Below, one piece after another: positions 1-35,673 of a stretch of 35,673 bases of DNA. Numbering within the stretch: the first letter of the stretch is position 1; every line of letters begins with the position of its first letter. Both the position numbers and the translations under genes were made by a program. Origin of the DNA: Thermodesulfobacteriota bacterium (GTDB lineage Bacteria > DASVDK01); NCBI GenBank assembly GCA_036562265.1, contig DATCKS010000522.1:1-35673 (forward strand). The letters are read 5' to 3'. The notes under the pieces are model-generated. The model was not told where the DNA came from, did no database searches, and saw nothing but the letters and a program-made list of their open reading frames with translations.

Positions 1-975
1 CACCACGTCCGTCAGATGATCGACCAGGTGGCGAAGACGGACGTGACCGTCCTCATCCGTGGCGAGAGCGGGACGGGGAAGGAAGTGGTCGCCCGGACGC
101 TCTTCCAGGAGTCGCACCGGCGGGACAAGCCGTTCGTCAAGATCAACTGCGCGGCGCTCCCGGAGCAGCTCCTCGAGAGCGAGCTCTTCGGCTACGAGCG
201 GGGCGCGTTCACGGGGGCGAACCTCCGCAAGCAGGGGAAGTTCGAGCTCGCCAACCACGGCACGATCTTCCTCGACGAGATCAGCGAGATGCACCCCGCG
301 CTCCAGGCGAAGCTCCTGCAGGTCCTCCAGGACGGCGAGTTCTCGCGCCTCGGCGGCGAGGGGGACGTCCAGGTCGACGTGCGGGTCATCGCGGCGACGA
401 ACCGCGACCTCGAGAAGGCGGTCCGCGAGGGGCAGTTTCGCGAGGATCTCTACTACCGCCTGAACGTGGTCAGCATCGCGCTGCCGCCCCTTCGGGAGCG
501 GCGCGACGAGATCCCGCTCCTCGTGGACCACTTCCTGACGCGCTACTCCCGGCAGTACAACCGCCCCTATCGTCCGCTCTCCGAGGAGACGATGCGGCGG
601 TTCATGACCTACCACTGGCCGGGCAACGTGCGCGAACTCGAGAACATGATCAAACGCGCGGTGGTCCTCGGCAACGAGTCGGCCATCCACACGGAGTTCG
701 CCCTGCGCAGCCGCGAGATCGAGCCCGAGGCGCAGGCGGTGGCGGCCGCCGCGAGCGTGGCGGCCGAGACGCCGATCGGGGCCGACGGCGATCGGCCGGT
801 GTCGCTCAAGGACATCGGCCGGGAAGCCGCGCGCAAGGCCGAGCGCGAGGTCATCTCGCAGGTGCTCAACTGGACGCGGTGGAACCGGAAGGAGGCCGCG
901 GAGATCCTCCAGATCTCCTACAAGGCGCTCCTCTACAAGATCAAGGAGAACGAACTCGACCGGCACCCGGCCTGA
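1..975 (+). CDS. Sigma-54-dependent transcriptional activator, C-terminal part. The gene starts left of the window. It may be the PrsR-type regulator of PEP-CTERM/EPS loci.
   Basis: Frame 1 is open from base 1, so the M at 16 in the ORF track is internal. Motifs: AAA+ Walker A GESGTGKE, sigma-54 contact loop ERGAFTGA, Walker B FLDEISE, and a C-terminal Fis-type HTH ([19 protein letters not shown]). Stop codon ends at 975. Confidence 0.9.
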
Positions 976-992
976 CGAACCGACCGATCGCG

Positions 993-1023
993 GGGCGGCC
1001 GCCCGGGGCTCGGGCGGCCGCCC
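993..1023 (+). terminator. GC-rich stem-loop made of two copies of the 12-bp perfect palindrome GGGCGGCCGCCC (993-1004 and 1012-1023) around a 7-nt loop. Possible intrinsic terminator or attenuator without a U tract.
   Basis: Read directly: the two copies are mutually complementary, so a 12-bp all-GC stem is possible. It lies 18 nt after the regulator stop codon and 26 nt before the next ATG. No T-run follows it. Confidence 0.35.
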
Positions 1024-1048
1024 GTACGGACGCGGGAGCCCGGAGTCG

Positions 1049-1720
1049 ATGCCGGCGGCGAGCCGGCGGAGGCGCGTGACGATGCGGCAGCCAAGGTGGC
1101 ACGTATCCCTCGTTCTCGCGACAGTCGTCGTTCCCGTGCTCGCGGGGTGCGGGACGGCCGGGCCGGCCGGCGCCGGCCGCGGGCCCGTCGGCGCCGACAT
1201 ATCGGCGACCGCTGCGGCGGCGACCGAGGACTACCGCATCGGTCCGGCCGACGTCCTGCAGGTCACCGTCTGGCGCAACGAGCAGCTCTCGGGCGAAGTG
1301 CCGGTCCGTCCCGACGGCAAGATCTCGCTGCCGCTCCTCAACGACATCCAGGCGGCCGGCCTCACGGCGGTCGAGCTGCGCGACGAGATCGCCCGGCGAC
1401 TCAAGGAGTACGTCACCGCGCCGGCCGTGACGGTGGCGGTCAAGGAGATCAACAGCCTCAAGGTCAACGTCCTCGGCCAGGTGCAGAAGCCCGGCGTGAT
1501 CGAGGTGAAGCGGCGCGTCTCGGTGCTCGAGGCGATCGCGCTCGCCGGCGGCCTGACCCCCTTCGCGGCCCCCAACCGGATGGTCGTGCTCCGCAAGGGG
1601 CCCGACGGGCGGCTCGTGCGGATCGGCATCCGCTACAACGACCTCCTCGCGGGCGACGACCGGCAGAACATCCTCCTGCAGCGCGACGACACCATCATGG
1701 TGCCGCAGAGCCTGTTCTAG
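1049..1720 (+). CDS. Periplasmic/outer-membrane polysaccharide export lipoprotein (Wza/EpsA family, Poly_export + SLBB)
   Basis: Lipoprotein signal with lipobox (VVVPVLAGCG). Poly_export signature YRIGPADVLQVTVWRNEQLSGEVPVRPDGKISLPLLNDIQAAGLT..ELRDEI, followed by an SLBB-like segment. An alternative start ATG at 1082 (MRQPRWHVSLV...) gives a more typical signal peptide. Confidence 0.88.
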   Translation: MPAASRRRRVTMRQPRWHVSLVLATVVVPVLAGCGTAGPAGAGRGPVGADISATAAAATEDYRIGPADVLQVTVWRNEQLSGEVPVRPDGKISLPLLNDIQAAGLTAVELRDEIARRLKEYVTAPAVTVAVKEINSLKVNVLGQVQKPGVIEVKRRVSVLEAIALAGGLTPFAAPNRMVVLRKGPDGRLVRIGIRYNDLLAGDDRQNILLQRDDTIMVPQSLF

Positions 1721-1722
1721 CC

Positions 1723-34076: not shown

Positions 34077-34092
34077 AGCAAGCGGTGTGCCA
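34077..34092 (-). promoter_or_regulatory. Sigma-54 (-24/-12) promoter candidate on the - strand: TGGCACA-CCGC-TTGCT
   Basis: The reverse complement of 34077-34092 reads TGGCACACCGCTTGCT, a perfect TGGCAC and TTGCT at canonical spacing. The -12 C is at 34078, so the predicted +1 is near 34066. That is 6 nt upstream of the ATG at 34060. Confidence 0.6.
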
Positions 34093-34124
34093 GAGGCAGA
34101 CCGGTCGTACCCGCCGCTGCTCGA

Positions 34125-34153
34125 TTGACACGCGCCGAGCAGGCACCAATAAT
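34125..34153 (+). promoter_or_regulatory. Sigma-70-type promoter candidate TTGACA-N17-AATAAT for the epimerase/dehydrogenase genes
   Basis: A perfect -35 TTGACA (34125-34130), a 17-nt spacer and a -10 AATAAT (34148-34153, 5 of 6 matches). It is followed by a 5' UTR hairpin CTCGGG-tcttcgg-CCCGAG (34169-34187) and SD GGAAGGGAG before the ATG at 34237. Confidence 0.55.
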
Positions 34154-34236
34154 CCCCGGAGGCGCTTGCTCGGGTCTTCGGCCCGAGTGGGGAGAATCGG
34201 GTGCGTCGGCCGGAGCGCCGCGGAAGGGAGACATCC

Positions 34237-35193
34237 ATGGCGAAGACCCTCGTCACCGGCGGCGCCGGCTTCATCGGGTCGCACCTGGTCGAGGCGCTCC
34301 TGGCGGCCGGACACGAGGTGATCGTCGTCGACAACCTGTCGACCGGCACCCTCGACAACCTCCGGTCCGTCCGCGGCGCCATCCGGTTCGTCGAGGGCGA
34401 CGTCCGGGACCAGGCGATGCTGCGCCCGCTCCTCGCCGGCGTGTCGTGGGTCTTCCACCTGGCCGCTCTCGCCTCGGTCCCCCGCTCGGTGGCCGACCCG
34501 TTCTCGAGCCACGACCACAACGCCACCGGCACGCTCGCCGCGCTCCTCGCCGCGCGCGACGCGGGCGTCGCCCGATTCGTCTACTCGGCCTCCTCGTCGG
34601 CCTACGGCGATACCGAGACGCTGCCCAAGGTGGAGACGATGCCGGCCCGTCCGAGGTCACCCTACGCCATCGGCAAGTACGTGGGCGAGCTCTACGCCGA
34701 GACGTTCCACCGCCTCTACGGGCTCGAAACGGTCTCGCTCCGATACTTCAACATCTTCGGCCCGCGCCAGACGCCCGACTCCCCGTACGCGGCCGTCATC
34801 CCGAAGTTCGTGACGGCGCTGCTCCGCGGCGAGCCGCCCGTCGTCCACGGCGACGGCCGGCAGACGCGGGACTTCACGTTCGTGGCCAACGCGGTCGCCG
34901 CCAACCTGCAGGCGGCCGCGGCGCCGGCCGAGCGGGTGGCGGGACGGGTCTTCAACGTCGGCTGCGGCGCGCGGACGAGCCTCCTCGACCTCCTCGACGA
35001 GCTCGGCTCGCTCACCGGGACCCGCATCGCGCCGCGCCACGTCGAGCCGCGCGCCGGCGACGTGCGCGACTCGCAGGCCGACATCGAGGCCGCGCGCCTG
35101 GCCTTCGGCTACGAGCCGTCGGTCGGCCTGCGGGACGGCCTCGCCCGCACGGTCGAGTGGTACCGGGAGACCGCGAGGGCGGGAACCCGATGA
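34237..35193 (+). CDS. NAD-dependent SDR epimerase, WbpP/TviC-like (UDP-GlcNAc / UDP-GlcNAcA 4-epimerase type)
   Basis: Rossmann motif LVTGGAGFIGSHLVEALL..GHEVIVVDNLSTG. Catalytic region SSSAYGD...PRSPYAIGKYVGELY. LRYFNIFGPRQTPDSPYAAVIPKF and GDGRQTRDFTFV. ATG at 34237 follows the SD. The GTG at 34201 in the ORF track is less likely. Confidence 0.85.
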   Translation: MAKTLVTGGAGFIGSHLVEALLAAGHEVIVVDNLSTGTLDNLRSVRGAIRFVEGDVRDQAMLRPLLAGVSWVFHLAALASVPRSVADPFSSHDHNATGTLAALLAARDAGVARFVYSASSSAYGDTETLPKVETMPARPRSPYAIGKYVGELYAETFHRLYGLETVSLRYFNIFGPRQTPDSPYAAVIPKFVTALLRGEPPVVHGDGRQTRDFTFVANAVAANLQAAAAPAERVAGRVFNVGCGARTSLLDLLDELGSLTGTRIAPRHVEPRAGDVRDSQADIEAARLAFGYEPSVGLRDGLARTVEWYRETARAGTR

Positions 35194-35673
35194 GCGGGGG
35201 GCTCATCGCCGGCCGCCGCGTCGCGGTGGTCGGGCTCGGCTACGTCGGCCTGCCGCTCGCCGTCGCCTTCGGGCGCAAGGGGCGGGTCATCGGCTTCGAC
35301 ATCGCGGCCGAGAAGGTGGCCCGGCTCGCCCGGGGCGAGGACCCGACCGGCGCCGTCACTCCCGACGACCTCGCCCGCGCGGAGGTCGAGTACACGACCG
35401 ATCCGGCCCGGCTCGCCGAGGCCGACTTCGTCATCGTGGCGGTTCCCACGCCGGTCGACGAAGCCAAGCGACCCGACCTGCGGGCGCTCGCGTCCGCCTC
35501 GCGCCTCGTGGGGGAGCAGCTTCGCCGGGGCGACATCGTCGTCTACGAGTCGACCGTCTATCCCGGCTGCACCCGTGAGGTCTGCGTCCCGCTCCTCGAG
35601 CGCGCCTCGGGCCTCGAAGCCGGGCGCGACTTCACCTACGGTTACTCGCCCGAACGGATCAACCCGGGCGACA
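35190..35673 (+). CDS. UDP-N-acetyl-hexosamine 6-dehydrogenase (TviB/WbpO-like nucleotide-sugar dehydrogenase). N-terminal 161 codons only; it continues past the window edge.
   Basis: My own translation of frame 3 from the ATG at 35190 gives MSGGLIAGRRVAVVGLGYVGLPLAVAFG...DFVIVAVPTPVDEAKRPDL...IVVYESTVYPGCTREV...GYSPERINPGD. ATGA overlap with the epimerase stop. It is absent from the ORF track because no stop lies in the window. Confidence 0.85.
   Translation, partial: MSGGLIAGRRVAVVGLGYVGLPLAVAFGRKGRVIGFDIAAEKVARLARGEDPTGAVTPDDLARAEVEYTTDPARLAEADFVIVAVPTPVDEAKRPDLRALASASRLVGEQLRRGDIVVYESTVYPGCTREVCVPLLERASGLEAGRDFTYGYSPERINPGD

Follow-up and report, generated by a model that had tools for sequence, protein, structure and literature searches.

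Genes and features of the locus

The window, by which we mean the whole 35,673-nucleotide (nt) stretch of Thermodesulfobacteriota DNA that was analysed, is an exopolysaccharide gene cluster of about 35 kb in which several groups of genes are preceded by motifs for the sigma factor sigma-54. It is contig C120, the longest contig of the metagenome-assembled genome G000 (3.27 Mb in 626 contigs, 72.7% G+C, 95% completeness), and its gene content was established from codon-position G+C together with Pfam and NCBIfam profiles. Transcription would proceed largely in one direction: the genes on the + strand between 1082 and 31127 are co-directional and separated by tiny gaps. Coding sequence accounts for 89% of G000 by our own gene calls; the window contains 13 gaps of 20 nt or more, which together amount to 1203 nt or 3.4% of its length. 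We read the window as a Wzx/Wzy-type exopolysaccharide locus made up of several transcription units, five of which are transcribed from genuine sigma-54 promoters with the help of activators encoded in the locus itself, and we give this reading a probability of roughly four in five. The features on which it is based are collected in Table 1.

The export and priming operon encodes a Wza-like exporter, an outer-membrane protein, a chain-length determinant, an ExeA-like ATPase, a tyrosine kinase and a priming sugar transferase. The products of the eleven tightly packed genes that follow the first GT2 glycosyltransferase gene include GT2 enzymes, two TagF-like phosphotransferases, a nucleotidyltransferase, an acetyltransferase, Wzy, Wzx and an unknown protein of 684 amino acids (aa). 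A two-component system comes next, then a short unit ending in a PDZ protein gene and a group of three GT4 glycosyltransferase genes; the right-hand part of the window holds a cyclic di-GMP (c-di-GMP) enzyme gene on the opposite strand and the sugar-precursor genes.

Table 1. Genes and predicted promoters of the exopolysaccharide locus, in order along the window (ORF, open reading frame)
Feature	Position	Strand	Evidence and remarks
Activator 1 (enhancer-binding protein 1, EBP1), C-terminal 324 aa	1-975	+	Pfam: Sigma54_activat, AAA lid, HTH_8 (Fis-type HTH); GAFTGA intact
Export/priming operon	1082-8127	+	Pfam; TIGR03007 and TIGR03013 above cut-off
Putative sigma-54 promoter P1, GGGCACGCCTCTTGCT	8130-8145	+	14.6 bits; before 58-aa ORF and GT2 gene
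58-aa small ORF	8174-8350	+	Strong Shine-Dalgarno GGGAGGGAGG; first gene behind P1
GT2 glycosyltransferase	8378-9526	+	Pfam
Putative sigma-54 promoter P2, CGGCACGTTACTTGCT	9530-9545	+	14.1 bits; 13-nt spacer to ATG 9559
Eleven tightly packed genes	9559-21713	+	Domain profiles
Putative sigma-70-like promoter, TTGACC-N17-TACGGT	21864-21892	+	TGG before -10; ahead of the kinase/activator-2 operon
PAS histidine kinase	21963-23075	+	Pfam/NCBIfam; overlaps activator 2
Activator 2, REC-AAA+-HTH	23072-24526	+	Sigma54_activat, AAA lid, HTH_8; GAFTGA intact
Putative sigma-54 promoter P3, AGGCATAGCGCCTGCT	24661-24676	+	12.9 bits; 62 nt before ATG 24738
Unknown 702-aa protein with hydrophobic N-terminus, then PDZ protein	24738-27505	+	702-aa protein is a paralogue of the 19659-21713 product
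Putative sigma-54 promoter P4, TGGCATGTGCCTTGCT	27525-27540	+	19.7 bits; 13-nt spacer to GTG 27554
Three GT4 glycosyltransferases	27554-31127	+	Domain profiles
GAF-GGDEF-GAF-HD-GYP protein, then 211-aa protein	31140-34060	-	GGEEF and HHERLDGSGYP intact
Putative sigma-54 promoter P5, TGGCACACCGCTTGCT	34092-34077	-	19.3 bits; precedes the c-di-GMP enzyme gene
Predicted sigma-70 promoter, TTGACA-17-AATAAT	34125-34153	+	11/12 match, zero expected; divergent from P5
NAD-dependent epimerase and UDP-glucose/GDP-mannose dehydrogenase (sugar-precursor genes)	34237-35673	+	Domain profiles

Sigma-54 motifs and their conservation

An earlier note, made from the letters of the window alone, had proposed a locus-wide sigma-54 regulon with four strong motifs and a weaker fifth. 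We scanned G000 with a 16-position weight matrix (PWM) and recovered the four strong motifs, P1, P2, P4 and P5, at exactly the positions that had been given, all of them in non-coding gaps and oriented toward the next gene. The weaker motif, at 24701-24716, had to be given up: it scores 5.4 bits, differs at two positions in the sister genome G001 and departs from GGCAC in its -24 element, while retaining the 10-nt spacing. The conserved site at 24661-24676, our P3, lies 40 nt upstream of it. A spacing of exactly 10 nt between the GG and GC elements (TGGCAC-N5-TTGCW) is kept at all five sites. The motifs had also been said to coincide with the only intergenic gaps of the locus; the five do all lie in gaps, but they occupy just five of the 13 gaps of at least 20 nt.

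Matches of this quality are concentrated where promoters belong. There are 58 PWM matches of at least 14 bits in G000, and 52 of them (90%) are intergenic, so that the objection raised in advance, that equally good motifs might occur at similar density inside coding regions, is answered by the scan. Intergenic DNA holds 51 matches at this threshold as against 6.5 +/- 2.2 in shuffled sequence, an eight-fold excess, and 20 as against 1.0 at 16 bits or more. The window itself has four matches of at least 14 bits in 35.7 kb where 0.63 would be expected from the genome average, and two of its motifs rank among the six best of G000. Elsewhere the matches cluster near activator genes, nine of them lying within 5 kb of one outside the window contig where about 3% of matches would be expected, and among the genes behind them are those for P-II, a pseudopilin, Hsp20, CheW, a universal stress protein and two c-di-GMP enzymes. 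P-II and pseudopilin genes are classic sigma-54 targets. The genome also encodes the sigma factor itself, as the note had asked to be confirmed (rpoN; TIGR02395, 463 bits with a cut-off of 277), and about 17 activator genes carrying the Sigma54_activat domain. The proximity to activator genes, the presence of P-II and pseudopilin among the targets and the presence of rpoN and the activators are independent indications, three in number, that the PWM finds real promoters.

Conservation in relatives adds to the evidence. A phylum-level search of species genomes returned two, G000 and G001, which belong to the same genus and share 92-94% DNA identity. Further relatives are metagenomic contigs that were found through homologues of two locus proteins: relative B (L121, L131 and L133; 76-82% protein identity), L132 (85%), L122 (71%), L125/L126 (59%) and L119 (58%). 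The homologue loci L120 and L124 (about 47% GC) are non-syntenic and were left out. The proteins of some of the relatives are labelled 'Thermodesulfobacteriota bacterium' at NCBI.

Orthologous motifs in diverged flanks could be traced as far as the relatives of 58% protein identity. The P1 motif is kept in G001, L131 (where it reads AGGCACGTCTCTTGCT) and L132, even though neighbouring bases and the length of the gap vary. At P2 neither the motif nor its distance of 13 nt from the ATG changes in G001, L131 and L132, and again the neighbouring bases vary. P3 is identical at 16 of 16 positions in G001 within a clearly diverged spacer, and the site aligns as GGCAY-N6-YTGCT across the spacers of all five relatives (L121, L122, L119 and L125 among them). 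P4 is identical in L121/L133, and L122 has TGGCATGCCCGTTGCT 14 nt before a called start. When the P5 spacers of five sequences are aligned, with an overall identity of 60%, the motif is the one block that does not vary. Judged on sequence, it is almost certain that P1, P2, P4 and P5 are real sigma-54 promoters, and the locus-wide regulon of the earlier note gains support from rpoN, from the background-rate scan and from these phylogenetic footprints.

The geometry of some of these sites is out of the ordinary. At P2 and P4 the start codon lies 13-14 nt beyond the end of the motif and has no Shine-Dalgarno sequence (9545-9559 and 27540-27554 in the window; L131:11168-11182 and L122:3541-3555 in relatives), and the spacing is the same in the relatives examined. 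GTG 27554 is the sole in-frame start between the P4 motif and the first beta-strand of the GT4 enzyme. Similarly close starts are seen at P5 (34077-34060) and at two further sites in G000 (C302:4901-4929 and C212:1638-1667). These distances suggest, tentatively and with the odds somewhat against it, that transcription by sigma-54 of the units behind P2, P4 and perhaps P5 might yield mRNAs with no leader or hardly any. If so, an activator-gated class of promoter would be coupled to leaderless translation in a phylum with two genomes in the searched set. The near-leaderless geometry at P2 and P4 is the sole less ordinary thread in the locus.

The c-di-GMP enzyme gene behind P5 has counterparts elsewhere in the genome: genes for a REC-HD-GYP and a PilZ-EAL protein (C121:6465-7689 and C184:8791-10371) lie behind matches of 18.2 and 14.8 bits. 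In this organism sigma-54 seems repeatedly to target c-di-GMP enzymes. The 211-aa protein encoded behind the GGDEF/HD-GYP gene matched no known family. A sixth candidate motif, before the 211-aa gene on the - strand (31862-31847, 11.6 bits), is kept in G001 and has no match of at least 11 bits in L121; it was rejected.

Several other products of these units are unfamiliar. The 58-aa ORF behind P1 would specify a protein with a basic N-terminus and one hydrophobic helix, translated from a message with a predicted leader of about 18 nt; a family search with it gave no match, and the equivalent position in L131 and L132 also carries a called 58-aa gene. The stretch that contains it, 8146-8377, was considered as a known riboswitch and ruled out, as it has no Rfam match and holds the small ORF; at the gathering threshold Rfam found zero RNA families in the window. 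The two paralogues of about 690 aa (19659-21713 and 24738-26846), which are 36% identical, flank the two-component system on both sides. Neither belongs to a Pfam or NCBIfam family, and a large protein collection yielded only 18 homologues, most of which come from syntenic loci in a small number of uncultured lineages. The 3' end of the final GT4 gene (31056-31137) carries a stretch of 55-80 nt that matches more than ten other contigs of G001 at 87-96% and is a dispersed short repeat.

Activators, regulatory order and competing readings

The earlier note had counted two sigma-54 activators in the window. Both are real, by their domains and by an intact GAFTGA loop, the element that contacts sigma-54, but the count is a lower bound: in G001 and L131 a third activator of the REC type lies directly upstream of activator 1, just to the left of the window, and its GAFTGA loop is intact too. 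The N-terminal receiver of activator 1 is lost at the contig end; in G001 and L131 the protein is full length, with receiver, AAA+ and HTH domains. Just upstream of the tandem activators G001 also has an IHF-beta-like gene (L117:3104-3418, - strand; 111 bits with a cut-off of 115). At sigma-54 promoters it is usually IHF that helps by bending the DNA.

Sigma-54 holoenzyme forms a closed complex that opens only when an activator bound upstream hydrolyses ATP, and activators of the receiver type act after phosphorylation. A scheme for the locus can be built on this. Promoter P1 would serve the 58-aa ORF and the adjoining GT2 gene, P2 the long glycosyltransferase, polymerase and flippase block, P3 the protein with the hydrophobic N-terminus and the PDZ protein, P4 the three GT4 genes and P5 the GGDEF/HD-GYP enzyme. 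The five would be opened by phosphorylated receiver-type activators, namely activator 1, activator 2 with its PAS kinase, and the third activator outside the window. We infer the dependence on sigma-54, the order of the cascade and all the pairings of activator with promoter from sequence.

The sensor pair and the sugar-precursor genes would stand outside this control. As the earlier note had observed, the regions before 1049, 21963 and 34237 have no sigma-54 motif; we found no site of at least 9 bits on the + strand there or before 1082. Its proposal that the sugar-precursor genes use another promoter agrees with the 11/12 sigma-70 match ahead of the epimerase gene, whose hexamers are conserved in G001 and L121. 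The site at 21864-21892 fails a stricter sigma-70 consensus rule; its hexamers recur in L133 within diverged flanks, and it is likely to be the sigma-70 promoter of the kinase/activator-2 operon. The PAS kinase and activator 2 could then be an always-present sensor, made in the absence of the signal, as the precursor enzymes would be. At least one activator might then turn on the glycosyltransferase units, the protein with the hydrophobic N-terminus, the c-di-GMP enzyme and activator 1 itself.

Activator 1 has a place of its own in such a scheme. In G001 and L131, the two relatives that cover the region, TGGCACATCGCTTGCT (19.3 bits) is found about 100 nt upstream of its start codon, and this position behind a sigma-54 promoter suggests a cascade or positive feedback, possibly with read-through into the export operon. 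The earlier note had assigned the export genes to other promoters. That assignment depended on the edge of the contig: the gap at 976-1081 is all that can be seen to lack a motif, because the contig ends inside activator 1. The export operon may well be part of the sigma-54 regulon, to judge from the relatives.

One way in which it could be so is by co-transcription with activator 1 from a sigma-54 promoter situated just to the left of the window. Gating by sigma-54 would then extend to the entire locus, save for the sensor pair and the precursor genes, and the promoters would otherwise be unchanged. The distance from activator 1 to the exporter gene is 73-106 nt. The exporter is more likely to start at ATG 1082 than at 1049, the position used in the earlier note, with GGAGG 8 nt upstream and an ATGCGGC start in L131 that agrees. 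A scan of the gap at 976-1081 found neither a sigma-54 site nor a match to the sigma-70 consensus, and T-run terminators were absent as well; the GC hairpin there is no more stable than shuffled sequence (z -1.1) and has degenerated in G001. In L119, of the syntenic relatives the most distant, a motif of 14.5 bits, CGGCACACGGATTGCT (L119:18455-18470), lies 22 nt before the start of that contig's own Wza-like export gene. Set against these observations, the activator-1 promoter was not seen in G000, as its contig ends inside activator 1 and the region is on none of the others; the corresponding gap in L131 is filled by 440 nt of GC-rich repeats, which might act as a terminator or conceal a promoter; and high-GC bacteria commonly have terminators without T-runs and often have promoters far from the Escherichia coli consensus. 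We put the chance that the export operon is transcribed in this way at slightly less than even.

A different view of the sites is that they act mainly as roadblocks or insulators, the sigma-54 closed complex halting read-through until an activator fires and so partitioning one long operon. Sigma-54 holoenzyme is known to form closed complexes that are stable, the genes are co-directional and tightly spaced over 30 kb of the + strand, the motifs come right after stop codons and no terminators were found. The present data give this view no direct support, P5 has no upstream co-directional gene to block, and a roadblock would in any case be compatible with promoter function. We regard it as unlikely to be the main role of the sites.

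Promoter function at all five sites also has points against it. The PWM frequencies only approximate the consensus and the gene calls are home-made. P1, P2 and P3 score between 12.9 and 14.6 bits, a range in which, going by score alone, about 13-23% of matches would be false according to the shuffle control. The P2 motif overlaps a strong hairpin in G000 (-24.1 kcal/mol, z -4.1), and the mRNA leader would be close to nil at P2, P4 and probably P5, an unusual feature in promoters of this class. A shared enhancer was not found either: a search of six upstream regions for 10-mers with one mismatch gave GC-rich coding words only, and a dyad search gave one family present in at least four of the six regions compared with 0-13 in random coding controls, both searches being limited in power by the mostly coding nature of the DNA upstream of the promoters. 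A block that is conserved upstream of P3 in relatives, CGTAACCGC, has nine matches in the window where 11.9 are expected and so is not enriched. Direct repeats in G001 were considered as enhancer sites as well; they make up a repeat of about 160 nt in the gap between the third activator and activator 1 (L117:1312-1477), about 850 nt beyond the end of the G000 contig, in which CGCCCCCCTCCTGACAAC occurs three times. They were rejected as a dispersed repeat that matches G000 contigs C223, C558, C121 and C25 at 82-93%.

The scores, the P2 hairpin and the location of P1-P3 directly after stop codons, where terminators are expected, could be taken to mean that some of these three are fortuitous, or belong to RNA hairpins with a role in ending or stabilising the transcript from upstream, leaving only P4 and P5 as real; this is very improbable given that P1 persists in a gap of altered length and sequence, that P3 is unchanged in an otherwise diverged spacer and that the P2 hairpin is not maintained. 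Its right arm reads CGTGCC, CGCAGC, CGCGAC and CATGAC in four genomes with no compensating changes, and the G001 hairpin is no more stable than shuffled sequence. Across these genomes the GGCACG...TTGCT elements and the spacer do not change, and the combination favours a promoter over a terminator at P2. We retain the reading of five sigma-54 promoters.

Comparison with known systems

By its architecture the closest analogue of the locus is the syp locus of Vibrio fischeri, whose 18 polysaccharide genes form four operons, every one of them activated by SypG together with sigma-54 (PMC10162802). Both are polysaccharide loci of several operons with a sigma-54 promoter for each unit, predicted in our case, and a receiver-type activator encoded within. 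The syp locus has one activator and a shared enhancer, whereas the present locus has two to three activators; a shared enhancer was not found here by k-mer and dyad searches, whose power was limited by the mostly coding upstream DNA. The SypA/SypE STAS partner-switch has no counterpart here, while export genes of the XrtA-associated type and a GGDEF/HD-GYP unit preceded by a sigma-54 motif are found here and distinguish the locus from syp; the lineages are unrelated.

A second point of reference is the PEP-CTERM/XrtA system with PrsK-PrsR and RpoN (Haft 2006, PMC1569441). In Aquincola an RpoN promoter of pepA has been mapped (TGGCAC/CTGCTT), and the sigma-54 targets are genes for PEP-CTERM proteins (PMC9850573). 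Our locus resembles that system in having sigma-54 and an NtrC-type two-component system beside exopolysaccharide genes, and its chain-length determinant (TIGR03007, 298 with a cut-off of 279) and priming transferase (TIGR03013, 500 with a cut-off of 393) exceed the cut-offs of the XrtA-associated models. The XrtA-type models for the exporter, ATPase, kinase and outer-membrane protein remain below their cut-offs, as do those for PrsR (TIGR02915, 414.5 versus 502.6) and PrsK (TIGR02916, 84.8 versus 300). No exosortase (EpsH/XrtA) was matched by PF09721 or TIGR02602 in G000 (95% complete) or G001 (96% complete). The PEP-CTERM domain PF07589 has one match in each genome, and a sigma-54 match of at least 10 bits was not found on the contig that carries it. 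The targets differ too, being PEP-CTERM genes there and glycosyltransferase units here. Because an exosortase was not found and the regulators fall below the PrsK/PrsR cut-offs, the locus is outside the XrtA/PEP-CTERM system, although part of its export set resembles that type.

In Burkholderia cenocepacia the Bep exopolysaccharide is under a cascade tied to c-di-GMP, in which BerB and RpoN activate BerA and BerA the bep genes (PMC9684580). An enhancer-binding protein and RpoN preside over an exopolysaccharide cluster there as they would here. In the Bep cascade sigma-54 acts on berA only, whereas our motifs lie directly before biosynthetic units; and BerB binds c-di-GMP, whereas our activators are of the receiver type and the link to c-di-GMP is only through the GGDEF/HD-GYP gene that sigma-54 would drive. 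At a more general level, a comparative study that linked sigma-54 to functions at the cell exterior found a conserved genetic association of the factor and its activators with the transport and synthesis of exopolysaccharide intermediates (Francke et al. 2011, PMC3162934). That work provides statistics across phyla, in which the present lineage was unsampled, and ours a promoter map of a single locus.

The control scheme is already known from other bacteria; the locus is a sound but ordinary example of it, and it opens no new question about sigma-54. Its value is that the promoters of a large exopolysaccharide locus are mapped, with good support, in an uncultured and deep-branching lineage that has barely been sampled, to which the gating of sugar-polymer synthesis by sigma-54 and locus-encoded activators would now extend. 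The export machinery need not be outside the regulon, and the cluster, if it is to be expressed in another host, would need rpoN and the right activators there.

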